Positions 2,253 through 38,795 of a stretch of DNA of 64,000 nt are shown here, one piece after another; the stretch's first letter is position 1; each line of letters opens with the position of its first letter. The translations under genes and the position numbers were made by a program. The DNA lies in the IMG/VR virus record IMGVR_UViG_3300028840_006156, one strand, 5' to 3'. This stretch comes from a virus. The notes below the pieces were generated by a model, which did no database searches, had not been told where the DNA came from, and saw only the letters and a program-made list of their open reading frames with translations.

Positions 2253-3398
2253 CTACGGGGCCGGGTCGGTCGAGACCTGCACGACGTCTGCGCTCGTCAC
2301 GAGGTAGCTCGACGCGGAGGGCACGACGTCGCCGGCCGGCACGACGATCGCACCCTGCGGCACCGAGAGCCCGTCGATGTCCTGCCAGGCTCCGGTGATC
2401 TGGGCGAGGTAGAGCGTGGCGCCGACCTCGACCTCGCCGGTGATCCCAGCCGTCGGGTCGCCGATCACAGCGACCGCGGTCGACCGCGCCTGCTCGAGCA
2501 CGGTGGCCTCGTCGAAGTCCGGGTCGACCACGAGGTTGTAGGCCTCGATGAAGACCGTCTGCGGGTTGAGGGCTTCGACGATCACGGGGATCCCGGCGCA
2601 CCTGTACTCGCGGAGTACCTTTCGCACCTTGTTCGCGAGCGAGCTGTTCGTCGTGCCACCTCCCCCGAGGACCCGGACCCGGACCCGGCCGGTCTGCGCG
2701 TCGCCGTCGAGGAGCTCCTCGGCCTGGGCGGAGATGATCCCGGGCACAGCGGCGGCCGCCGCCTCGATCGCTCCGAGGGTCCCGCGTCGAGCTCGCTGGT
2801 ACGCGGTCTCGAGCTGCGCCTGGTAGTCCTCGGGCGACTGCTCGACGAGACCACCGCTTGCGGGCTCGTTGTTGTTGACCGCCAACGTCGTGTCTGGGAC
2901 CTGCCCGAGGATCGTCGAGATCGTCAACGCCGGGACGTTGCCGCCCGGACCAGCGGTCGTGGCGATCGCGTCCACGGTGTCGCCCGTCACGCCGAAGCCC
3001 AGCGGCAAGTCGACGGCGGTCTCGAAGGTCACGCCGCCGTTGGTCGAGACGAGGGTCCCCGCCGCGATCACGATCGACGATCCGCCCGGATCGCGCTTGA
3101 AAGTCAGCGGGACGATCGACGAGGTGGCTCCCTGTCGGATCTCGCCGCCGAGTTCGCTGGCGCCGTAGCGCTCGAGGGCCTCGATGCTGACCGACAGCGC
3201 CGTGCGCAGCCGGGTCTCGTTCAGCTCCCGCTGGGCATAGGTCGACGCTCGCTCGGACATCGCACCGACGGCCGCGAAGGCGATGTTCACCTGGCTACCA
3301 GGCGTCTCCATGATCTCGCGGGTCAGGCGAGTAGGCCGCGCGAGCCCCTCGCGTTTGGCGGCCTGGATGTAGTCCTCGGCGGTGGGCAGCGTGGCCAC
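2253..3398 (-). CDS. baseplate J-like wedge protein
   Basis: 381 aa; IAAGTLV...FET, AIATTAGPGGNV, GG..EQS.EDY, AAAAVPGI pattern; TACCCT-N6-GTG upstream. Confidence 0.9.
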   Translation of the reverse strand: MATLPTAEDYIQAAKREGLARPTRLTREIMETPGSQVNIAFAAVGAMSERASTYAQRELNETRLRTALSVSIEALERYGASELGGEIRQGATSSIVPLTFKRDPGGSSIVIAAGTLVSTNGGVTFETAVDLPLGFGVTGDTVDAIATTAGPGGNVPALTISTILGQVPDTTLAVNNNEPASGGLVEQSPEDYQAQLETAYQRARRGTLGAIEAAAAAVPGIISAQAEELLDGDAQTGRVRVRVLGGGGTTNSSLANKVRKVLREYRCAGIPVIVEALNPQTVFIEAYNLVVDPDFDEATVLEQARSTAVAVIGDPTAGITGEVEVGATLYLAQITGAWQDIDGLSVPQGAIVVPAGDVVPSASSYLVTSADVVQVSTDPAP

Positions 3399-3839: not shown

Positions 3840-4730
3840 TCACCGCGCCGGCAGGTCGAAGAGGAACGTTTGCAGACCCTCGGTCCGCGGCTGCACGCTG
3901 ATCACGAACCGGACCACGCCGCCGCCATTGGCCTCGACCTCGACGCGGGCTTCGACGGCCGCCTCGCGTACGTCGGGCTCGAACTGGATCTGCTCGCGCA
4001 CGCGCACGGCGATCTGCTGGACGTCGTATGGCCGCGCGACGCGCTTGGCGAAGCTGGTCAGGCCGTAGTTGGGTAGGTGCGAGAAGGCCCCGACCTCGGT
4101 CTGGATCCGCTGGAGGATTCGCGTCTTCAGTGACTCGGCGTTGTCCGCGAGGACGAGCTCGCCGGCCTCGTCGTAGCGCCAGATCCGCTCTCGCGCGACG
4201 GGCAGACCGGTGACCGGGTCGATCTCGAAGAAGGGGTTCGACCAGTCGCCGTAGGTGTCGACGGCCGCGATCCCGGTCCGGTTGCGCAGCGGACGGTCGC
4301 GCGCGGTCACGATGAAGATCGTCTGGCCGCCGAACTTCTGGCAGTTCGCGCCGAGGATCGGTCCGACGAGCTGGACCGCGTACTCGATCCCGGGCTCGAG
4401 GGTCGGCGCCGTCCAGACATGTAGCTGCGTAGGATCGTCCTCGTCTTGGAGGATGTCGTTGATCACCACGCCGCGGGTGGGCCTGCGCTTGCCGGGCTCG
4501 ACGTAGATCCCACCGTCGAGGGTAGGCACCGCTGGATCGATCGGGTCGACGCGCCAGTTCAGCGCGTTGCGGCTGTCGCGGTAGCCGATCGGGTCGCGCC
4601 ACTTCGGCGGGTCGGTGAAGAAGACCGTGATCTTGTTCTCTCCGACGCACAGGGCCGTGATGATCGAGAGCAGGCCCGGTCCGCCCCAGGGCGCGACGGT
4701 GCCGAAGGGCAGGATCCCGAAGCCGCTCAC
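3840..4730 (-). CDS. baseplate wedge gp25/gpW-like protein with N-terminal beta-rich (Ig-like) domain
   Basis: C-terminal ILQRIQTEVG.F..LPNYG...QIQFEPDVREA matches gp25/W family; adjacent to J. Confidence 0.75.
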   Translation of the reverse strand: MSGFGILPFGTVAPWGGPGLLSIITALCVGENKITVFFTDPPKWRDPIGYRDSRNALNWRVDPIDPAVPTLDGGIYVEPGKRRPTRGVVINDILQDEDDPTQLHVWTAPTLEPGIEYAVQLVGPILGANCQKFGGQTIFIVTARDRPLRNRTGIAAVDTYGDWSNPFFEIDPVTGLPVARERIWRYDEAGELVLADNAESLKTRILQRIQTEVGAFSHLPNYGLTSFAKRVARPYDVQQIAVRVREQIQFEPDVREAAVEARVEVEANGGGVVRFVISVQPRTEGLQTFLFDLPAR

Positions 4731-16866: not shown

Positions 16867-17319
16867 ATGAGCATCGACTACAACGTCCACGTTGGGGCCT
16901 ACATTCGCGTCTGGACCACGGTCACCCGAACGGAGGTCGATCTGTGCGCTGACCACGAGCACGGTGGTGGTGCATTCTGCTCGGAGTGCGGACGCCCCTC
17001 GAAGCGCCGGATGAAGGCCGAGGAGACCCGGCCTGATGACGGGTACTACGAGGCTCACATGGACGAGCGGCTGTGCCCGTGGGACGTCGGCGACCTCTAC
17101 GACGAGGGCCGGCGGACCTACGTCATGGTCGAGAACGGCGTCGACACGACGGGTCTGCATATCGATCCGAAGTATGACGACAGCGCCGAGCAAGCGATGC
17201 CCGACGAGGCAACGTGCGAGGCGAACTTCAAGGAGCGCTACGCCAAGGAGATCGCGTGGCTCGTCGCGCACGACTGCGAGGTCGAGGTCCGCTTTGGCGT
17301 CCTCAGCTGGTCCTACTAG
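16867..17319 (+). CDS. zinc-ribbon hypothetical protein
   Basis: CADH...CSEC; antisense between TMP and LysM genes. Confidence 0.65.
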   Translation: MSIDYNVHVGAYIRVWTTVTRTEVDLCADHEHGGGAFCSECGRPSKRRMKAEETRPDDGYYEAHMDERLCPWDVGDLYDEGRRTYVMVENGVDTTGLHIDPKYDDSAEQAMPDEATCEANFKERYAKEIAWLVAHDCEVEVRFGVLSWSY

Positions 17320-19556
17320 GTCCCCTGCTCGATCGCGCCGTAGGCCTGGACGCGCCGGTCCGCGAGGCCGGCCGTCTTCTTGATGAACGCCGCGAACAGC
17401 CGGTCGGGGTCGGGGTCCGTCGTGTTGATCACGACCTCGACCTTGCCGATCTTCGTCCCGCCTGGAGCCCGCTTGTCCTTGTCCTTGTCCTTGCCCGCGA
17501 GCATGTCGGACAACGACTGCTGGAGGTCCTTCGCCTTCTTCTGGGCGGCAGCAAACTGCATCGGGGTGAGTTGCGCATCTCGCACTGCGTCAGCTGCCTT
17601 GTGGAACCTGTCCGCGGTCTTGAGGTTCGCGCTTGCTGCGCCGTAGGCCGAGTCGCGGATCCCGTCGATCGATGCGATCGCTCCGTCGAGTCCGTCGCCG
17701 ACCTTGGGGATCTTCGACATGACTCGAAGGCCGTCGCCGATCAGCTGGAGTAGCGCCGAGAAGGCGAGCCGGAACGCTCCGAAGGCCTCGATCCCGTAGG
17801 CCACGATGTCGATCATCCCGCCGAGGACCATCGACGCGAAGTCGACTGCGCCGGTGAGCATGTCGAGGCCGCTGACCATCACCGTCGCCGCGTCGGTGCC
17901 CCCGAACATGGCGACACCGACCAGGCGCAGTCGCTCGTAGAACGTGTAGAGCGACGTGATCAGCGGGAGCAGCGAGATCTTGCCCGACTCAATCGCACCG
18001 ACGAGCGACGCCTTGATCTCGTCCCACGATGTGGCGACGTAGGCCGCGAGGCCGCCGACGACCACGGCGACGCCGGAGAACGCGAGCGCGAGTCCGCCAG
18101 CGGCGACGCCGACGCCAGCGATCAGGGGGGCGAGCGTGGCGAACTTGAGGATCGTCTTGTCCATCCCTCGGAACAGCCGCAGGCCGCCCTTCCCCCCGCC
18201 GATCTTTCCGGTGATCCGTGACAGGCCTCGGCCGAGCATCCCGAGCCCGCCGCCGCCCTTCCGGCCACCCATGCCCCGACCGATCGCCATGTGTCGACGC
18301 CTGGCCATGGCGCCGAAGCCTTCACGTCCGCGCCTCATCCCTGCGCCGACGACCTGCGCAGCGGCCATGCCCTTGCCCGCGATGATCATGCCGTAGCCCG
18401 CGACGAGACGAGCGGTCGCCACGACGCTCGCTGCCTTGAGTGCAGCGCCCGCGAGCACGCCGGCCTCCTGGATCTTCGTCGCGATGTCGCGCCAGTGGGT
18501 GGCGACGTACCAGGCCCCGCGGTGTAGCCGGTCGAACAGCTTGTCGGCTGCCTTCGACAGCTGCTGACCCGCGAAGCTCGCGGCATTTTCCATCGTGTCC
18601 ATGCCGCCGCCGAAGGTGCTGATCCCGACCTTGCCGGTGGCACGGCTCATCGCGCGCTTGAGGCTGTCCATGAGCGGGGCAGCAAAGGCGCCGGCTAGCG
18701 TCATGCCCTCGGACTTCATCGTCGACGCGAGGCCACCGAAAGACTTGCCGAAGGCCGTTGCCGCCTCTTTCGAGACCCCATCGACCGCGACCTCGACGAT
18801 CTTGAGCGCCGTGTCGCCGCTTTGCTTCGCCAGCTTGTTGAACATCTGGGCGAAGTCAGCCTCGGTCTCCTTGCCGGTGACCTTCTTGAACGCTTCGCGG
18901 AGGTTGGGCTCGAGCTGCGAGAAAACAGCGACGTCAGCACCTGCGAGGCCACGTACGATCCGGCCGACGTCGGCGCCCATCTGCTTGTAGTCACCGCCGG
19001 TCGTGAACGCGAGCAGCGAGACCTTTTCCATCAGGTCGCGCTGGCGTTTCAGATCCTTGGTCACGCCGGTCACGCCGGGCGCCATCGCCGAGTAGGCCGT
19101 GGCGATGTCCTCGTAGGTTGCGGGCGACTTCTTGGCGATGTCGTAGAGCTCCGCCTGCATCCCCGCGGCGAGTTCGCTGGCCTTGGCGAACTCGGTCATC
19201 TGCCCGGTCATCACGGCCTGGGACTGACCGGCGACCCCGAACAGCTGGTACATCGTCGCCAGGCCGAGCCGGCCCTGCTCCATCTCGGAGTTGAAGCGGA
19301 CGCCCTCGCTAGCCGCCGCCGCGACGCCTCCGACGAGCGCACCGCCGGCCGCCATTGCGCCCATCCTCGCCCACTCGCGAGCAGTCTGGCCAAAGGTCCC
19401 CCGCACGCGCTCTCCCGCGGACACGAGCCGGCTCGACATCGACGCGTAGGACTTGCCGACGGTGTCCGCCGCGCGAGCCATGCCGATCGCCTCGCGCTGG
19501 AAGCTGCCCGCGGTCTTCAGGTTCGCGCGGACGTCGTAGGTGATCCCCTGCGGCAC
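17316..19556 (-). CDS. tail tape measure protein
   Basis: 746 aa Ala/Gly-rich helical protein; AKKSPATYEDIATAY TMP motif; follows chaperone genes. Confidence 0.9.
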   Translation of the reverse strand: MPQGITYDVRANLKTAGSFQREAIGMARAADTVGKSYASMSSRLVSAGERVRGTFGQTAREWARMGAMAAGGALVGGVAAAASEGVRFNSEMEQGRLGLATMYQLFGVAGQSQAVMTGQMTEFAKASELAAGMQAELYDIAKKSPATYEDIATAYSAMAPGVTGVTKDLKRQRDLMEKVSLLAFTTGGDYKQMGADVGRIVRGLAGADVAVFSQLEPNLREAFKKVTGKETEADFAQMFNKLAKQSGDTALKIVEVAVDGVSKEAATAFGKSFGGLASTMKSEGMTLAGAFAAPLMDSLKRAMSRATGKVGISTFGGGMDTMENAASFAGQQLSKAADKLFDRLHRGAWYVATHWRDIATKIQEAGVLAGAALKAASVVATARLVAGYGMIIAGKGMAAAQVVGAGMRRGREGFGAMARRRHMAIGRGMGGRKGGGGLGMLGRGLSRITGKIGGGKGGLRLFRGMDKTILKFATLAPLIAGVGVAAGGLALAFSGVAVVVGGLAAYVATSWDEIKASLVGAIESGKISLLPLITSLYTFYERLRLVGVAMFGGTDAATVMVSGLDMLTGAVDFASMVLGGMIDIVAYGIEAFGAFRLAFSALLQLIGDGLRVMSKIPKVGDGLDGAIASIDGIRDSAYGAASANLKTADRFHKAADAVRDAQLTPMQFAAAQKKAKDLQQSLSDMLAGKDKDKDKRAPGGTKIGKVEVVINTTDPDPDRLFAAFIKKTAGLADRRVQAYGAIEQGT

Positions 19557-20647: not shown

Positions 20648-21025
20648 ATGACCACCACCGATCCCGATCCCGACCGCATCATGGACGGGTTTTTTCGACA
20701 CAGCCGCTTACTCGCCATGAAGGGGCAGGAGTGCCAGGTCGACATGTTCGTCGGCGGTGAACGGCTCGACGGCCTGCAGTGCATGTCGCTGACCGAGGCG
20801 CGCGGCGTGGCGACCTCGGTCTGGAAAATCGTCGACGCGACCCAGCTGCCACGCGTCGAAGCGGGCGTCGACCTCGAACTGCGTACACGCTTCGCCGACC
20901 CGCGCGGCAACGTGCAGCCGTGCGTCTGGACGGGGCGAGTCGTCGGTCTCGGGCTCGCTGGGCGCTCGGACTTCGTCACGGTCACGATCGAGGGCGTACG
21001 TCGCGAGTGGGGCGAGTCCGAGTGA
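20648..21025 (+). CDS. tail-tube paralogue with internal deletion, N-terminally carrying the TMP C-terminal motif
   Basis: KGQEC.V and RSDFVT...EGV shared with tube; TTDPDPDR shared with TMP C-terminus. Confidence 0.7.
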   Translation: MTTTDPDPDRIMDGFFRHSRLLAMKGQECQVDMFVGGERLDGLQCMSLTEARGVATSVWKIVDATQLPRVEAGVDLELRTRFADPRGNVQPCVWTGRVVGLGLAGRSDFVTVTIEGVRREWGESE

Positions 21026-22909: not shown

Positions 22910-23353
22910 CTACAGGTCGACGTCCTTGACGTCGCTCACGACGCCCTCGAGACTCAACGTCACGAAGTCGCTTCGCGAGCTGATCGCGTTCTCCAGCGGG
23001 CCGAAGAAAATGTCTTGCAGCTGGATCTGTCGCGTCTGTCCGGTGGGCAGCGCCGCCGCGAAGGACAGGTCGAACTGGGCAGCTGAGCCCGCCCGACGCT
23101 TCGACCGGTCGATGATCTGCTGGCGCAGGATGTAGGGCTGTACGTCCTCGATCTGTAGCGTCGCCGAGAAGGTCGTGTTCCGGTAGATGTCGTCGTTTCG
23201 CGTCGCGACCTCCCCGAGCAGGTCCTCAGACAGCTGCTCGACGTTGTCGGTCACGGTCAGGTCGACGACGGCGTTGAACGCCGCGCTGATCGTGTTGTTC
23301 ACCAGGAAGCTGACGAAGCACTCCTGGCCCTTGAGACGTGGGTTTCCAGCCAT
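22910..23353 (-). CDS. tail tube protein
   Basis: 147 aa directly downstream of sheath; SD-like GAGGAG upstream. Confidence 0.8.
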   Translation of the reverse strand: MAGNPRLKGQECFVSFLVNNTISAAFNAVVDLTVTDNVEQLSEDLLGEVATRNDDIYRNTTFSATLQIEDVQPYILRQQIIDRSKRRAGSAAQFDLSFAAALPTGQTRQIQLQDIFFGPLENAISSRSDFVTLSLEGVVSDVKDVDL

Positions 23354-23377: not shown

Positions 23378-25936
23378 TCAGGCCGCGGCGGCGGTCACCT
23401 GCGCGGAGGTGACGACGGTCTGGCCGACGGTGACGTCGAAGACGATCGCGTCGGCGGTGGCGAGCATGCGCACGGCAACCCGGGCGCGCAGAATGTTGGG
23501 GACGTCGGGGTCGCTCGTGTCCGTGACGTCGAAGGACTCGATCCGCTGGGCTTGCGGCTGGTCCAGCGACTGCAGGCCGGTCAAGAAGTTGATGATCTGG
23601 CCGAAGAAGTTGCGGCGCAGGTCCTGGGTGATCAGCTTCTTGCCGTAGGGGACCGCGAGGATGAACAGGCTGTCGTTGATGAAGTCCGCGAACCATCGAC
23701 GGTTGGCGGGCGTCTGCGAGGCCTGGGTGAGCGAGTCGACCGAGGTGACGTCGTCGACGAAGGCGGCGCCGGCGGTCCGGTCGAGGATCGGCGCGGTGAT
23801 CCCCTCGCGCTTGAACCGGATGTAGTCGTTCACGTCGAGCTTGGTGCTGCCCTCGCTGAGCGGGTCGTAGGCGGGCTCGAGGCCGGCGACGTTGAGGCGA
23901 CCGACGTTGGTCGAGCGCAGGTCCTGTCCGGAGCTCTGCTCGGGCGGGATGATCGAGCGGATCGCCGCGAGCCAGCTGTCGGCGCCGACGGGCACGACGC
24001 CGTCGTCCGTGAAGCCGACGCCACCGCTGGCGCCCTGCTCGGCGATCTCCTGGATCCGCGCCTGGAAGCCGGGGAAGGCGAACTGCTTGCGCTCCTCGCG
24101 GAGCGCCGCGTTCTCGGCGACGGCGTCGTCCACCGAGACTCCGAGCCGCGGCCGGACGATCGTCTTGCGGCCGGACAGGCCAGCGGCCGTGGCCTCGCGG
24201 GCGTTGATCTGCAGCTCGTTGTTGATCGCCGGCGACGTCCGGGCCGAGCAGATCGCGTTCGCTTCGCGGGCCGGCGGGGCGTCGACGTTGGTCTCCCGGA
24301 TCGCCGCGATGTAGCGCGAGTCCAACTGCGCGGACGTGAGGCGCGTGATCGACAGCGGGTTGGTCACCGCAAAGCCGCCGGGCAGGTCCGATAGGATCAC
24401 GGTGACGTCGTTGGGGCCCGAGGCGAGCGCGGCGTCCGTGTCGTCGAACGGTCGGACCTTGGCCTCGAAGGGGCCGCCGCCCGTGCCGGTCTGGACGTCG
24501 GACATCGTGATCCAGACCGTCGCCGTCGAGGTCGCGTCCTGGACCCGGGTGCCCGCTGGGATCGTCAAGTCTGGCCCGTTGGCCGCGTCGACCGTGGTCG
24601 TCGTGTCGAATCCGAGGGCTGCGAGCAGCGCGCCCGAGTCGCCCTTGATCGCGCCGGTGCCGGGCGTGAGCTCGTTGCAGGCGCGCAGGGTGCCGTCGCT
24701 GTTGACGGTCGAGCCGAGGTTGGCAGCGGCGTCGAGGATCGCGGCCGCCTCCTGGGCGGAGAAGCTCGACGCGTCGCCGACGTTCCCGGTACCGAAGACC
24801 TCGAGCGCGACGCCGGGGACCGTGTTGGCCACGGTGACCTCGGCTCCGCCGGCGAGCATCGTCAGCCCGGTCAGGATCTGGTTGTCCGCGCCGGTGACCG
24901 TGATCGCATCGATGCCCGATGCGGCGAAGATGAAACCCGGGACGCCGAGTTGCGAGAGTTGGGGCGGATCCGTGACCGCGTCGCTCAGGAGCTTGTCGCG
25001 CTTGAGCGTGACCGACCCGATCACGCCCGAGAAACTCGCGGTGTCGAAGTCGGTGGCGACGCCGTCGACGATCCGCGAGACGCGGGCCTGAGTGGCGATC
25101 CCGCTGTCGCCGGTGACGGTCAAGGTCCAGACGTCCTGGACCACCGCGGTGGGCAGACCGAGGTCCGAGAGCGCGGTCCCGCCGACGATCTTGATCCGGG
25201 CCTCGGACCCGGCGCGGACGGACCGGAGCTCGAGCTGCCCGCCGTTGTCGAACGCGATCGTCGCCGCGACCTTGGCGTTGATCCTGGCGATGACGTCGGC
25301 GAGCGTGATGTCCGTCGACGCGAACGTGATCGTCTGGGCGTCCGCGTCGCTCGCGTCGTCCCAGGCCACGATCAGCGTCTTGTTGGTCAGGGTGCCGAGC
25401 GGTAGCGGGTAGACGACGCCGGACGCGAGGATCGAGGCCTTCGTGGCGTTCAGCGTCGCCGTCGCCGTCGTGGCGCCGTTGTTCAGGTCGAACACGGCCT
25501 GGTCCCCGTTGGCCGCGGAGAACGGGCCCGAGCCGCCGTTTAGGCAGGCCAGCCGCGTGAGCTCGACGACGCCAGCGGAGCTGTCCACGCGGTGGATCAG
25601 CAGCCGGTTGAAGACCTTGTTGGCCGTCCAGACGAAGACGTTGCCGTTCCACGCCTCGCTGCCGCCGGACTGCTGGGCGACCGGGCCCACGTGGGGGCCG
25701 ACGCCGGTGATCGGCCAGCCCAAGCCGCCGAAGGTCTGCTCGCGCGAGGTCGGGTTCGTGACCTCGGTCGTGACGCCGATCGGCCCCTTCTCGGTCTCCC
25801 CGACGATCAGGATCGTCCCCGTGCCGGCCCCGAACAGGAGCTGCGGCGGAGCACGGTCGATGATGTTGGTGCTGGCGACGTTGAGAAACGTCGCGTTGCC
25901 GGGGTCATCGAGAAAGACGCGGCGGAAGGCGACCAT
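23378..25936 (-). CDS. contractile tail sheath protein
   Basis: LIVGETEKGP....VT N-terminus, VNDYIRFKREGI...DDVTS...RRWFADFI C-terminal sheath motifs. Confidence 0.9.
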   Translation of the reverse strand: MVAFRRVFLDDPGNATFLNVASTNIIDRAPPQLLFGAGTGTILIVGETEKGPIGVTTEVTNPTSREQTFGGLGWPITGVGPHVGPVAQQSGGSEAWNGNVFVWTANKVFNRLLIHRVDSSAGVVELTRLACLNGGSGPFSAANGDQAVFDLNNGATTATATLNATKASILASGVVYPLPLGTLTNKTLIVAWDDASDADAQTITFASTDITLADVIARINAKVAATIAFDNGGQLELRSVRAGSEARIKIVGGTALSDLGLPTAVVQDVWTLTVTGDSGIATQARVSRIVDGVATDFDTASFSGVIGSVTLKRDKLLSDAVTDPPQLSQLGVPGFIFAASGIDAITVTGADNQILTGLTMLAGGAEVTVANTVPGVALEVFGTGNVGDASSFSAQEAAAILDAAANLGSTVNSDGTLRACNELTPGTGAIKGDSGALLAALGFDTTTTVDAANGPDLTIPAGTRVQDATSTATVWITMSDVQTGTGGGPFEAKVRPFDDTDAALASGPNDVTVILSDLPGGFAVTNPLSITRLTSAQLDSRYIAAIRETNVDAPPAREANAICSARTSPAINNELQINAREATAAGLSGRKTIVRPRLGVSVDDAVAENAALREERKQFAFPGFQARIQEIAEQGASGGVGFTDDGVVPVGADSWLAAIRSIIPPEQSSGQDLRSTNVGRLNVAGLEPAYDPLSEGSTKLDVNDYIRFKREGITAPILDRTAGAAFVDDVTSVDSLTQASQTPANRRWFADFINDSLFILAVPYGKKLITQDLRRNFFGQIINFLTGLQSLDQPQAQRIESFDVTDTSDPDVPNILRARVAVRMLATADAIVFDVTVGQTVVTSAQVTAAAA

Positions 25937-25967: not shown

Positions 25968-26273
25968 TCACAGGGGCGACCTGAGCAGACCCAGGGCAGC
26001 TGCGCGCTCCAGCCCGAGGCGCTCACCGATCGTGCCCTCGATCATCGCGTGGCCGAGATCCTCGCACGCGTCGGAGACGGCATCCGCAAGTGCCACCGAT
26101 CCATCGTGGGCGGTAAGCCACGGGCTTACGCTAGCGACGCCGCGGCGCCATCCGCAAGACGCTACGACAGTGACGACGCCGTAGATGGACGAGGCCGGTG
26201 TGCACGTGACGGTCGCCGGCAACTCGCCGAGCACGCTCCGGGCTACCCGGCTAACGATCTGCTGGTCGTTCAC
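25968..26273 (-). CDS. hypothetical protein
   Basis: GTG 7 nt after motif 26281-26308. Confidence 0.6.
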   Translation of the reverse strand: MNDQQIVSRVARSVLGELPATVTCTPASSIYGVVTVVASCGWRRGVASVSPWLTAHDGSVALADAVSDACEDLGHAMIEGTIGERLGLERAAALGLLRSPL

Positions 26274-26280
26274 GCCCGGT

Positions 26281-26308
26281 CTACCGCGCGCCCCCGCGTC
26301 AGCTTCCC
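26281..26308 (-). promoter_or_regulatory. GGGAAG-N17-GGTAG promoter motif
   Basis: Exact spacing. Confidence 0.8.
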
Positions 26309-27159
26309 GCGACCGTAGCCTCGACGTCGAACTGGAAGCCGTCGACCACGCCGGGGATCGTCACGAGCTCGACCACGGGCGCCTCGGCGAGGATGCTGAC
26401 CTCGAGCACCCACTCGTTCACGCGCGCGCCCTCAGCGTTGTCCGGCCGCGTCGTGTCCTGCAGCTGGTAGCGGATCGACCGCGAGAAGTACTCCGGCACG
26501 ACCACGTGCCGGGCGCCGATGTCCTGCCGCGGCTCGCCCGCGAGCGCGTTGATGATCCGCGAGGCGAACCCCCTGCGCTGGTCCTTGTGCGCGAACCACA
26601 CGACGACCGCGAGCGGGATCTCCTGGACGCCCATGTAGCGCAGCACCGTCCCCTCCATGAACCGGTCCTGGGTCTCCTCGAGCAGCCGAGGCGTGAAGCC
26701 AGCGACGTCGAAAGGCGCGGGATCGGGTCCGGTGATCAGCGCCGTCTGAGCCGGCATCGACTCCTTCTGCTGGCCGTCGGGCCAGTCGAGGTGGATCTTC
26801 GTCAAGCGGTGCGGCTCGCGGCTCGTGCTGATCGTCTTCCCGAGCTCGGCGAGGATCTGTAGGTCGAAGCTGCGCCACCGCATCGCGTCGAGGATCCGGT
26901 AGAGGCCGAGCATGGCCGCGTCCTTCGGGGCCATGGTGACGACCGCGGCGCCGTCGGGCGGGAACGACTTGGTCTGCTGAGCGGGGAGGATCTCGCCGTA
27001 GCCCGAGATCCCGACGAGTGACCGGGTCCCGTCGGGGTTCGCGATGATCTCGACCGTGTACGCCTCTTCGGGCGGGACCCCTGCCGGGCGCGGTGGGACG
27101 CCGATCGTCGGGACGTCTGGGCGGATCGAGTCGGGGTCGAAGGTGCGCTTGATCTGCAC
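26299..27159 (-). CDS. putative tail completion/terminator protein
   Basis: Position upstream of sheath; TACGCT-N6-GTG. Confidence 0.6.
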   Translation of the reverse strand: MQIKRTFDPDSIRPDVPTIGVPPRPAGVPPEEAYTVEIIANPDGTRSLVGISGYGEILPAQQTKSFPPDGAAVVTMAPKDAAMLGLYRILDAMRWRSFDLQILAELGKTISTSREPHRLTKIHLDWPDGQQKESMPAQTALITGPDPAPFDVAGFTPRLLEETQDRFMEGTVLRYMGVQEIPLAVVVWFAHKDQRRGFASRIINALAGEPRQDIGARHVVVPEYFSRSIRYQLQDTTRPDNAEGARVNEWVLEVSILAEAPVVELVTIPGVVDGFQFDVEATVAGS

Positions 27160-27161
27160 CC

Positions 27162-27189
27162 GGGAAGCGTACACGGGCGGCGGCGGTAG
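27162..27189 (+). promoter_or_regulatory. GGGAAG-N17-GGTAG motif followed by a ~100-nt leader
   Basis: Overlaps TACGCT of gene 27159. Confidence 0.75.
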
Positions 27190-27196
27190 AGTTGGG

Positions 27197-27299
27197 CGAC
27201 ACCAAGCAACACAGACCCGGAGGTGAGCCATGCGACCGTAGACATGAACCCGGAGCCCCGCACGCAGCCGTAAGGCCGAGCGCCGGGGCTTTCGGGGTG
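27197..27299 (+). promoter_or_regulatory. structured 5' leader with two uORFs (MRP*, MNPEPRTQP*)
   Basis: GGAGGTG-N4-ATG at 27230; AGCCCCG (27254-60) pairs with CGGGGCT (27284-90); inner GCC-GTAA-GGC hairpin. Confidence 0.45.
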
Positions 27300-27749
27300 A
27301 TGGACCCCGAGACCAAGCGACTCCTCGAAGAAGCTCTACGGACGATGGTGGCGCCTCGTCCGGTGGCGCCCGTTGTCCGCGAGTTCACCGCGTTCGAGCG
27401 CGCCGTCGAAGAGGCCGGCCGGAAGTTCTACGAGCAAGCCAAGGACGGCCGGGGCTACCAGTTCGTGCGCGACGACGGCTCGAAGATCGGTCCGCCGTTC
27501 ATCGTGTCGAAGCCCACCCCGCCGATCTGCGAGCGCAGCGGAAACCCGAGCGGGACGGACACCTGGAGCCTCGGCCACCCGTGCCCGTGCAAGCCATGCA
27601 CGACCTACTGCGCGCTGCTCGACGACGGCGTGCCGTTCATCGTCAACGCGAGCGCGCTCCCGGGCACCTACCGCGAGCCGCTGACCTACGTCGGCCCCGT
27701 GCGCTCGGGCAGCCTGCGCGAGTTCGAGGACGAGGAGTCAGGACGATGA
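27300..27749 (+). CDS. hypothetical protein with Cys motif (CPCKPC)
   Basis: Start MDPETKRLL after GGGGTG. Confidence 0.6.
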   Translation: MDPETKRLLEEALRTMVAPRPVAPVVREFTAFERAVEEAGRKFYEQAKDGRGYQFVRDDGSKIGPPFIVSKPTPPICERSGNPSGTDTWSLGHPCPCKPCTTYCALLDDGVPFIVNASALPGTYREPLTYVGPVRSGSLREFEDEESGR

Positions 27750-28195
27750 GGCTCAAGGGCAAGTCCAAAGTGACGATCCTGCGCCCGGATGGCGTCGCCT
27801 GGACGCTGCCGGTCGAGGAGCTATCCATCTTCGAGTTGCCCGACTCGCGCGATCCCAACGGCCCTAGGCGCTTCGACAACATCTACGAGGGGGAATCCTT
27901 CTCGATGACGGTGCAACTCGAACCGACCGCGATGGACGTCCTGCGCGAGTTCATCGCGAAACAACAGCAGCGGCTAGACCCAAGGCCTGGGCTCGTGGTC
28001 TCGGTCCCTCGGTTCAGCCACTACGACGTAGCTCTCGCGCTGCGTATGCGGCAGCACGTGCCGGTCGGTGGCGACGTCGTGGACATGTACTCCGGGCCCG
28101 GTTCGTTGATGTGGGTCGAGTCGCCCGAGGACGATGGCGACGGGCTCATCCGCTACACGCTGCGGCGTGGCCAGGACCTCGTGAGGTCGGCGTGA
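27746..28195 (+). CDS. tail-tube paralogue (N-terminal half) with unrelated C-terminus
   Basis: RLKG, VEELS, RFDNIYEGESFSMTVQLE vs tube RLKG, VEQLS, RNDDIYRNTTFSATLQIE. Confidence 0.7.
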   Translation: MRLKGKSKVTILRPDGVAWTLPVEELSIFELPDSRDPNGPRRFDNIYEGESFSMTVQLEPTAMDVLREFIAKQQQRLDPRPGLVVSVPRFSHYDVALALRMRQHVPVGGDVVDMYSGPGSLMWVESPEDDGDGLIRYTLRRGQDLVRSA

Positions 28196-28296
28196 GCCAC
28201 CGGGTCTGGTTCGTTCTGACACTGCTCGTGGCTTCCGCGGTCGCAGCCCTCGCGTGCGTGCTGACCCTCGAAGTGATCGCCTACCTCACTTCTTGA
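28192..28296 (+). CDS. single-TM peptide (34 aa)
   Basis: VWFVLTLLVASAVAALACVLTLEVIAY; GTGA overlap. Confidence 0.5.
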   Translation: MSHRVWFVLTLLVASAVAALACVLTLEVIAYLTS

Positions 28297-28791: not shown

Positions 28792-28819
28792 GGGAAGTCT
28801 ACGCGGGTGCGGGCGGTAG
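28792..28819 (+). promoter_or_regulatory. GGGAAG-N17-GGTAG motif overlapping TAGACT of gene 28789
   Basis: 7 nt before ATG 28827. Confidence 0.8.
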
Positions 28820-28826
28820 AGCAGGC

Positions 28827-29159
28827 ATGTGGCTGCCCGAGTACATCGAGAACACCCGCGCCTCGATCGAGGCGATCCCCGAGCCCTTCATGAAGCAGGC
28901 GGCCGCCGCGAAGACGTGGGGAGCGACCTACGAACCCGTCGCAACACCCACGGGCGTGCGCATGTGGATGCGGCTTCTCGGGACGTTCTCGTGCGACTAC
29001 GGTCCGACGCACGACCGCTCGCTCGACGACTTGAGGTTGGAGATCGACGCCCTCGAAATCGTCGCCCACCCGCAGGCCGAGGCGCTTCAGCGCTGGATCT
29101 CCGACTACGGCAACAGCAGCGCGACGCCCTCGACCGAGTCCCCGTCGACCACAGTCTGA
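28827..29159 (+). CDS. hypothetical protein
   Basis: Leaderless start after motif. Confidence 0.6.
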   Translation: MWLPEYIENTRASIEAIPEPFMKQAAAAKTWGATYEPVATPTGVRMWMRLLGTFSCDYGPTHDRSLDDLRLEIDALEIVAHPQAEALQRWISDYGNSSATPSTESPSTTV

Positions 29160-33339: not shown

Positions 33340-33367
33340 GGGAAGCGCCCGCCATCCCAGTAGGTAC
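33340..33367 (+). promoter_or_regulatory. GGGAAG-N17-GGTAC promoter motif
   Basis: 7 nt before ATG 33375. Confidence 0.8.
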
Positions 33368-37678: not shown

Positions 37679-38795
37679 GTGGTCAGCGCCAGTCGATCGC
37701 TGGGTCAGGAGGGCCAAGGGCGTCGACGGCAAGATGCTCGGCGCACCGGCGAGGCTCCTCCTCGACGACCTCTGGTCGAAGGCCGACGCCCCGAGCAAGC
37801 GCGACCCCGAGGCCCATGTCTTCGTCTACGGCGAGTGGATCACCGTCGGTGAGATCGCCCGTGACTTCGAGTGCGCCGATCGCACGATCCGCACGCAGTT
37901 CGCGCAGATATTCAATGCTGGACTCGCCAAGAAGGGTCGCGGGGTCAACAACCACGGCCGCGAGGTCGACGGGATCTGGCTCGCCAACGTGCCCTCGGCC
38001 GGATGGTTTGATCCGCCGACCCGGATCAAATCGTCCGATCAAACCATCCACGATCGCGGATCAAACCATCCGGCTGCCCGGATCAAATCGTCCGGGGACG
38101 CGGATCAAACCATCCACGAAAACGGATCATTTAATCCGCACGATCGGCAAAAAACGTCCGCCAACCCGGATCAAATGATCCGCGCCTATAAGGAAGACCC
38201 AATTAACCCAATTGGACCCGATCAGACCCGATCGCGCGAGGCCGGGCAGGCCGGCCTGTTCGGTGACGAGCCAGTGGTGGAGGAGACTGCACCTGGTGAG
38301 TCCGTCACCCCTGCGAAGATCCGGGCCTGGTGGGACGAGGTCTTCGTGCCGCTGCGCGCCGAGACACTCGACCGATACCGGACGGGATCTGCGCAGCCGA
38401 TCGCATGCTCGAAATCCAGGATGGCGGCGCTGCGCAAGCGCATCGCCGAGACCTGCCCTGGGGTGCCGTGGACAGATCCGACCCCCGGTGTCGACGGCGT
38501 CCGCGAGCAGCTGACCCACGTCGTGCGCAACGCAGCGGCTAGGGTCCACGAGCATCGTGGAGGAGAGACCTCGTGGGGGTGGAACTCGCTCGACGCGATC
38601 CAGCCGAAGCACTGGACGGCCGAGAAGAACTTCACCCGGTACTACGAGGCACCACCTGCCGACGACAGCGACGGGAAGCCTCCGCCCGATGTCGAGGTAA
38701 TCGGCGGCGTGGTCCAATACCCTCGAGCCGACGCGACGAACTACGGCACCGGCACCGCCTACGGCGACCCACGGAGGCGACGCCGCGATGACTGA
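37671..38795 (+). CDS. replication initiator (lambda O-like, N-terminal HTH)
   Basis: wHTH-like GEIARDFECADRTIRTQFAQ; internal iterons; directly upstream of DnaB. Confidence 0.75.
   Translation: MGEWSAPVDRWVRRAKGVDGKMLGAPARLLLDDLWSKADAPSKRDPEAHVFVYGEWITVGEIARDFECADRTIRTQFAQIFNAGLAKKGRGVNNHGREVDGIWLANVPSAGWFDPPTRIKSSDQTIHDRGSNHPAARIKSSGDADQTIHENGSFNPHDRQKTSANPDQMIRAYKEDPINPIGPDQTRSREAGQAGLFGDEPVVEETAPGESVTPAKIRAWWDEVFVPLRAETLDRYRTGSAQPIACSKSRMAALRKRIAETCPGVPWTDPTPGVDGVREQLTHVVRNAAARVHEHRGGETSWGWNSLDAIQPKHWTAEKNFTRYYEAPPADDSDGKPPPDVEVIGGVVQYPRADATNYGTGTAYGDPRRRRRDD
38001..38181. repeat. iteron-like repeats, candidate replication origin
   Basis: About 8 copies of (G)GATCAAA(C/T)..(A/G)TCC, one inverted (38001-14), followed by an AT-rich patch. 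Confidence 0.75.

Follow-up and report, generated by a model that had tools for sequence, protein, structure and literature searches.

The gene considered here, P0001, lies in the tail module of an uncultured virus represented by IMG/VR record IMGVR_UViG_3300028840_006156. The stretch of DNA that was analyzed (the window) is 64,000 nucleotides (nt) long, has a G+C content of 68%, and is part of a metagenomic phage contig of about 84.1 kb; the same contig was assembled independently in several samples. The conserved tail genes of the window are on the minus strand, and P0001 lies on the opposite strand, 1.8 kb upstream of the sheath gene. A first-pass annotation had described its product as a second paralogue of the tail tube protein, with a tube-like N-terminal half grafted to an unrelated C terminus. 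The features needed for the comparison are the following (aa, amino acids; HMM, hidden Markov model).

27746-28195, plus strand: P0001, 149 aa, probable tube-derived accessory protein (called from codon-position GC content, overlapping start and stop codons, and a stored gene call)
27749-27973, plus strand: P0001 residues 2-76, putative tube-homologous half, with the N-terminal RLKG strand motif, a shortened hairpin, and a strand plus helix
27860-27973, plus strand: P0001 residues 39-76, strongest part of the tube match (hhalign, HMM, and shuffles)
27974-28192, plus strand: P0001 residues 77-149, C-terminal half, no detectable relative
22910-23353, minus strand: P0002, predicted resident major tail tube gene, 147 aa, directly downstream of the sheath-like gene; reference for the comparison
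23378-25936, minus strand: sheath-like gene, 852 aa

The open reading frame (ORF) at 27746-28195 is a real gene. Its GC content by codon position (0.66/0.43/0.85) resembles that of other genes of this phage; between an earlier GTG at 27581 and position 27745 this pattern is missing. The sequence AGGA stands 2 nt ahead of the ATG, which overlaps the stop codon of the upstream gene, P0004 (ATGA), and the P0001 stop codon in turn overlaps the GTG start of a 34-codon ORF downstream (GTGA). The gene calls stored with the public contigs comprise the identical three plus-strand genes, with the same ORF for P0001. P0001 is the middle gene of a three-gene operon that runs antisense to the tail genes, an orientation that the first-pass annotation had reported correctly, and it is placed between a P0004-like protein and a 34-aa membrane peptide.

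Similarity of P0001 to the tail tube family

The comparison depends on the identity of P0002, which has no family match by sequence in Pfam, PHROGs, or other sequence searches. An AF2 model of P0002 built with 20 orthologues (predicted local distance difference test [pLDDT], 74.7) has its best Foldseek matches among entries of tail-tube-bearing assemblies, namely, diffocin, PVC, AFP, phage 812, phiCD508, and HFTV1, and also matches the lambda tube protein V and Hcp. All of these matches have a probability of 1.00, with template modeling scores (by query) mostly of 0.5 to 0.69 and down to 0.44 for Hcp. From these matches we take the protein that was initially called a tube to be a real tail tube, and P0002 is predicted to have the tail tube fold.

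The short strings on which the resemblance to P0001 was originally based are where they were said to be. RLKG occurs at 27749-27760 (plus strand) in P0001 and at 23327-23338 (minus strand) in the tube gene, and the ORF at 22910-23353 (minus strand; 147 aa) contains VEQLS, RNDDIY, FSATLQIE, and ILRQQI. The identity counts are also correct (9/18, and 3/6 for VLREFI against ILRQQI). The strings VEELS and VEQLS are both present, but they are out of register in the profile alignment and may agree by chance. By BLASTP, residues 42-76 of P0001 align with residues 52-86 of P0002 with 13/35 identities and 26.6 bits (E, 7e-5 for a single pair).

For comparison at the level of the family, about 30 related tail loci were gathered via relatives of the sheath protein. 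They yielded 24 tube orthologues, always located right after the sheath gene, and the tubes of this clade are 143 to 148 aa long. Against an alignment of 7 orthologues (A1), hhalign matched residues 39-76 of P0001 with 93.2% probability (E, 2.8e-7; score, 46), and against an alignment of 20 orthologues (A3), it matched residues 2-76 to tube residues 6-87 with 90.4% probability (E, 1.4e-6; score, 41). There was no full-length profile match of P0001 to the family (A3), as residues 2-76 alone align. When a tube HMM was searched against 6,144 six-frame ORFs from the window and 31 related loci, the P0001 frame ranked first after the 24 orthologues (E, 1.6e-4), and a 20-member HMM left the order unchanged, with P0001 followed by the frame at 20648. 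In the reciprocal phmmer search with P0001, almost all top matches were tube orthologues, and the alignment always paired residues ~40-76 with tube residues ~52-90. Residues 39-76 scored 21.7 bits against the HMM, compared to a maximum of 7.6 bits for shuffled sequences, and none of 2,000 shuffles reached the score. For residues 1-38, shuffles reached the score in 55/2,000 cases locally, which is marginal, and in 3/1,000 cases in global alignment, in which the segment stands out.

The N-terminal motif R-L-K-G-x-x-x-h-x-h-L is a signature of the tube family and is collinear in P0001. Family columns R6, G9, D54, I56, and G59 (tube numbering) correspond in the hhalign alignment to R2, G5, D44, I46, and G49 of P0001. 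In the tube model, the core of the match corresponds to strand 52-67 and helix 72-84, which form the second arm of a long hairpin and the helix that follows. We accept homology of the N-terminal half because the family-level tests (hhalign, HMM ranking, reciprocal phmmer, and shuffles) are significant, and residues 2-76 thus appear, by sequence comparison, to be homologous to the tail tube family of this clade. The part of the first-pass annotation that placed a tube paralogue in the N-terminal half is therefore upheld, and the profile-profile alignment that it had proposed as a check came out significant both for P0001 and for a second tube-like protein, P0003 (E, 1.1e-4).

P0001 shares with the clade's tubes, whose fold is that of diffocin, PVC, AFP, phage 812, lambda gpV, and Hcp, the region aligned above (residues 2-76 against 6-87), including the R-L-K-G motif, the pattern R-[FY]-D-x-I-Y-x-G-x-x-F-S, and the next helix, as well as a similar overall length. 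It differs from them in several ways. The hairpin is about 7 residues shorter, and the invariant Arg and the Gly-rich motifs of the C-terminal half are unrecognizable. Whereas the tube gene directly follows the sheath gene on the same strand at 24/24 loci, P0001 is antisense, does not adjoin the sheath gene, lacks conservation in relatives, and belongs to a different promoter class.

The C-terminal half gave no alignment-based signal. Residues 77-149 matched the tube C-terminal half with an hhalign probability of 0.1%, scored -2.4 bits against the tube HMM (no better than shuffles), and reached z values of about -0.1 to -0.6 in global and semiglobal profile alignment. A phmmer search with these residues found no match among the six-frame ORFs of the window and 31 related loci, and none of the P0001 alignments placed the tube positions G105, D114, F117, and invariant R127 or the motif GGR-E-Y-V-x-x-S-x-EG. 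The initial description of an unrelated C terminus therefore stands insofar as similarity is undetectable, but a graft as such does not follow, since a diverged full-length copy fits equally well. We consider the chances roughly even that this half is a replacement or a tube half diverged beyond recognition; the model of P0001 made from its single sequence is too poor (pLDDT, 44.5) to decide between the two.

P0001 does not seem to be a recent duplicate of the resident tube gene, given its better match to the tubes of other phages and a retained glycine. Across the 35-residue core, identities are 16/35 with the tube of relative L007, 14/35 with those of L003 and L009, and 13/35 with the tube of its own phage, and phmmer with P0001 scores 20.6 bits against a tube from another phage and 12.7 bits against the resident one. 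P0001 also keeps a near-invariant Gly of the family that P0002 has replaced. The term "paralogue" is thus apt in the sense of tube derivation but not in the sense of a copy of the resident gene, and P0001 would be either old or acquired from another phage.

The second tube-like protein is encoded in another antisense island of the tail module and bears on P0001 because the two proteins are complementary, as had been proposed at first reading.

20648-21025, plus strand: P0003, sister accessory mini-tube, 125 aa, tube-like at its start and in its C-terminal half
17316-19556, minus strand: tape-measure-like gene, 746 aa

P0003 keeps the tube start motif, and its residues 69-120 match tube residues 87-141 by hhalign, whereas P0001 covers tube residues 6-87; both split the tube at about the same point (~87), right after the helix. 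P0003 was the second nonorthologous match of the tube HMM (E, 0.15 among the 6,144 ORFs), and shuffles reached its score in 0/2,000 cases for the C-terminal half and in 2/2,000 for the N-terminal half. P0001 and P0003 do not match each other. Both are small, tube-derived genes in antisense islands, but P0003, unlike P0001, carries an N-terminal peptide like the tape measure C terminus: its first ~23 residues are 47.8% identical over 23 aa to that of this phage and also resemble those of L007, L003, and L004.

Distribution of P0001 and organization of its cassette

No relative of P0001 was found outside this phage lineage. Searches of GenBank phage records by DNA and by protein, sequence searches of Pfam, PHROGs, and PDB, and a search of IMG/VR and GTDB genomes by peptide patterns all gave no match. 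A word search of 5.8 billion proteins returned P0001 itself only, and an exhaustive HMMER search of 1.84 billion representatives returned P0001 and a repeat protein (P0005) whose match is spurious; it is from these two protein-set searches that we conclude the restriction to the lineage. There is no copy in the related loci L003 to L008, nor in a 97%-complete relative of 81.6 kb (G001), in which the sole match is the tube gene itself. The slot is occupied in L004 by a 185-aa protein, and it holds nothing further in L003 and L027. Since relatives with the same tail lack P0001, it is not a core part of the virion.

A second phage, represented by contigs of run X3, carries the gene in a mosaic setting. 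Over 26300-27197 its contig shows 111/898 differences and 4 indels (87.6% identity); positions 27198-27679, which include the N-terminal part of the first cassette gene, are replaced by 149 other bases; and 27680-28284 follows with just 16 differences, free of indels (97.4%). In the X3 contig that comes next, with the tail-completion gene, identity is back at 87% (60/464 differences). The conserved block begins precisely with the C-terminal motif of P0004 and spans P0001 and the membrane peptide, whose 34-codon ORF is ~97% conserved together with P0001. P0001 is thus present in at least two related phages. The block is far better conserved than its structural flanks, owing either to recent exchange or to constraint, and P0001 is mobile between related phages.

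The cassette comprises the features below (GC3, G+C content at third codon positions).

27162-27188, plus strand: promoter-like motif GGGAAG-N17-GGTA, heading the three-gene cassette
27189-27299, plus strand: 5' leader of the cassette, with a GC-rich hairpin at ~27254-27290
27300-27749, plus strand: P0004, first cassette gene, 149 aa, Cys-rich (GC3, 0.89; the database gene caller starts it at 27345)
28192-28296, plus strand: third cassette gene, 34-aa hydrophobic, single-pass membrane-like peptide, with a GTG start that overlaps the P0001 stop codon
28286-28789, minus strand: HK97-gp10/Neck1 tail-completion gene

The motif GGGAAG-N16-17-GGTA has 27 matches in the window, compared to 0.06 expected by chance, and lies mostly 8 nt ahead of a start codon (ATG or GTG), a spacing that suggests leaderless transcripts. 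Copies stand ahead of the helicase and DnaB operons and, within the virion modules, mostly ahead of islands antisense to structural genes; further copies are at 33340-33366 and 38673-38699. The motif is present in the closest relatives (L003, L027, and L004), including ahead of P0004-like genes in L027 and L004, and is absent from more distant ones. A scan for sigma-70-type promoters found none for the cassette, and a terminator scan found no terminator-like site after 28296, where the end of the 34-codon ORF overlaps the convergent tail-completion gene by 11 nt.

P0001 had also been described as following a structured leader, and this did not hold, as the DNA directly upstream is the coding gene at 27300-27749. 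The real leader, at about 27189-27299, precedes the first cassette gene. Of the 26 promoter sites with a listed downstream ORF, only two have a long leader, this one (~108 nt) and another of 88 nt. Its fold is not significant (27192-27310; z, -1.57), and 12/200 shuffles fold as well, so that the structure is without statistical support.

P0004 ends in a motif, VGPVRSGSLREFEDEE (27680-27746 [plus strand] in the window), that is conserved in relatives. In L003 (8848-8916, minus strand), L027 (8605-8862, minus strand), and L004 (8764-8823, minus strand), small antisense genes that occupy the same slot carry it; in L005 (8655-8723, minus strand) it occurs at another place. The proteins that end in it are small accessory proteins from several related phages and are otherwise unrelated, and it may be a docking tag. 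The antisense genes that bear it mark the interval from the tail-completion gene to a 291-aa gene as a conserved slot for accessory genes, to which P0001 and the 34-aa peptide are an addition in the present lineage. The N-terminal part of P0004 contains a Cys cluster (C-x20-C-x-C-x2-C-x3-C) that could bind metal; P0004 relatives in other phages are without this part.

Relatives of this phage also carry accessory genes in or beside the tail module (L003 to L006 and one further locus), mostly as antisense islands. They encode N6_N4 and C5 DNA methyltransferases, an AcrIF11-like ADP-ribosyltransferase, DUF4326, ChaB, DUF7694, and Septknot. The tail module is a hotspot of accessory genes in this clade, and the gene types have the flavor of antidefense or competition genes.

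These properties recall morons, which are described as independent transcription units inserted in late operons (PMC3594210). As in morons, the P0001 cassette has its own promoter motif and shows presence/absence polymorphism and exchange between genomes, so that both a promoter and variable presence among related genomes are found. It differs in that no terminator was found for the cassette and in the overlap of its end with the convergent tail-completion gene.

Alternative explanations and possible function

Overall, we consider it probable that P0001 is a tube-derived, non-core accessory gene restricted to this lineage. A number of points weigh against this reading. P0001 is known from sequence alone and in only two phage genomes, and recent exchange, not constraint, may account for how closely the X3 copy agrees with it. 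Homology extends over a short stretch, with a core of 38 residues, and the support for residues 1-38 is marginal. Foldseek found no match for the AF2 model of P0001 (pLDDT, 44.5) at an E value of <=0.001. The promoter class would be early only as judged from the genes that it precedes. Lastly, the pairwise BLASTP match is not decisive, because unrelated pairs reach 24 to 27 bits in an all-versus-all comparison of the ~100 window proteins and because the tube-matching segment also hits P0005 with nominal significance. We rejected P0005 as a relative of P0001, as it is built of repeats, and residues 40-61 of P0001 match the repeat unit four times over; this spurious match shows that short matches to the segment can arise by chance.

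The last two observations would suit a resemblance by chance or convergence, with P0001 as an unrelated orphan accessory protein. We find this scarcely credible: the use of profiles raises the score (46 and 41 by hhalign) rather than lowering it, P0001 comes first after the orthologues among all ORFs searched, the reciprocal matches are almost all tubes in a single register, no shuffle of the core reaches its score, and the N-terminal motif is collinear. A nonfunctional relic of illegitimate recombination that captured part of a tube gene is also very unlikely. Only half of the tube is recognizable and the slot is variable among relatives, as such an origin would have it, but the 149-codon frame is intact with typical codon-position GC content, its start and stop codons overlap both neighbors, and the second phage is 97.4% identical without an indel over the gene while its flanks of 87 to 88% identity carry indels. 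Contractile tails use several tube-fold proteins, and P0001, which has tail proteins among its language-model neighbors in the ESM Atlas, is encoded within the tail module, in the interval from the tail-completion gene to the sheath gene; it might thus be a minor structural protein (a tube initiator, adaptor, or cap) built into the virion. We regard this as quite improbable, since relatives whose tail genes are the same and in synteny lack P0001, the 97%-complete genome among them; in L004 the slot is filled by an unrelated gene, that of the 185-aa protein, and in L003 and L027 it holds nothing further. The antisense orientation, a promoter motif of the replication and accessory class and not of the tail genes, and the start/stop overlaps with a 34-aa membrane peptide and a variable Cys-rich protein also argue against a structural role.

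The most serious competitor, to which we assign somewhat less than an even chance, is that P0001 is not a chimera but a full-length tube-fold paralogue, an old duplicate whose C-terminal sheet has diverged past sequence detection. Its length (149 aa, compared to 147 aa for the tube) is consistent with this, as is the low-confidence AF2 model, which has four to five strands after the helix, like the tube model, so that the order of secondary-structure elements is compatible with a tube fold. The ESM Atlas' own model of P0001 has a pLDDT of 0.42. Within residues 93-117, P0001 has YDV-x17-DMYSG with the same spacing as in the tube. The corresponding pattern, [FYIW]D[ILVM]-x17-D..-x-G, occurs in 11/20 tubes and in 101/200,000 shuffles, and it counts as a hint only because it was devised after the motif had been seen in P0001. 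At the level of a lead, the Atlas neighbors of residues 77-149 alone are Phage_min_tail, GpU, and Dit-like clusters (0.81 to 0.90), and those of P0001 overall are "Phage tail protein," DUF6711, Phage_min_tail, GpU, and Dit-like clusters (0.81 to 0.92), but scores of this level arise by chance in 4 to 10% of shuffled proteins. Set against these hints are the complete lack of alignment-based signal for residues 77-149 and the loss from view of the invariant Arg and the GGR-E-Y-V motif of the family.

If P0001 is an accessory gene of tube descent, it might act as a tube mimic, a role that we propose tentatively and hold to be plausible but, on balance, doubtful. Its N-terminal half probably descends from a tail tube gene of this clade and comprises the N-terminal strand motif, a shortened inter-ring hairpin, the next strand, and the outer helix. 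With these elements, P0001 would occupy a partner that normally grips the N-terminal and hairpin/helix surface of the tube. The most likely target would be a host immune sensor of the tube protein, with P0001 as a decoy against DSR2- or Avs16-type sensing; alternatively, it could act on the tail-assembly machinery of a competing phage, in the manner of Tab or Tai. We would slightly favor a sensor decoy because of the promoter class and the types of neighboring genes. Against a decoy, a protein that binds the sensor might just as well trigger it. A cofolding prediction for the tube (A3) and P0001 gave a score of 0.10 (mark, 0.32), which counts neither way.

Both kinds of target have counterparts in the literature. 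Bacterial DSR2 and Avs16 sense the tail tube protein, Avs16 via the conserved hairpin of the tube (PMC10981675, PMC13581612), and DSAD1 is a phage inhibitor of the tube-sensing NADase DSR2 (PMC10981675, PMC11087589, PMC13581612). The likeness is that the tube protein is an immune trigger and that small phage proteins counteract DSR2, and P0001 keeps the hairpin-proximal half; DSAD1, in the passages that concern it, is not described as tube-like. A decoy role for P0001 would be a purely inferential extension of these likenesses. Phage-encoded Tab (phage JBD26) and Tai (phi80 and phage-inducible chromosomal islands) block the tail assembly of rivals (PMC10884400, PMC11364771). As accessory, moron-type genes that act on the tail assembly of other phages, they suggest a plausible route for a defective tube-like subunit. 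In these accounts neither is described as tube derived, and they can be compared with P0001 by description only. Tab, moreover, targets the tape measure C terminus and is expressed from a prophage. No lysogeny genes were seen in the 64-kb window.

A bolder version, which we think unlikely, is that P0001 and P0003 form a set of deliberate self-mimics that this uncultured myovirus expresses with its replication genes. In this scheme, every member would display part of a conserved virion protein, for P0001 the hairpin-proximal half of the tube, and the fragment would either saturate an Avs16- or DSR2-like host sensor without firing it or cap the growing tubes of coinfecting relatives. The phage itself would escape harm because its resident tube has diverged in the mimicked segment.

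Tube-fold proteins are known as tail building blocks, and a dispensable, mobile tube-derived gene with apparent nonstructural coregulation belongs to no described category. If P0001 is a mimic, it would represent a simple route by which a phage turns its conserved, immunogenic parts into countermeasures or into weapons against rivals, and it would link bacterial sensing of tube, tape measure, and chaperone proteins to what phages contribute to the arms race. Should P0001 be no more than a diverged spare part, the interest is local and confined to the annotation of an uncultured phage clade.

Other features of the tail module

Two further genes were recognized in the tail module of the window.

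2253-3398, minus strand: Baseplate_J
3840-4730, minus strand: gp25-like gene

Beside the P0001 cassette is a second variable island, where X3 has 145 other bases in place of 28819-29108 (290 nt). The replaced segment lies inside a plus-strand accessory ORF of 110 aa behind a promoter motif at 28792. On the other side, between the 291-aa gene and the sheath gene, a 101-codon ORF (25968-26273, minus strand) that is outside the stored gene calls begins 8 nt past a promoter motif at 26282-26308 (minus strand) and may be another small accessory gene.

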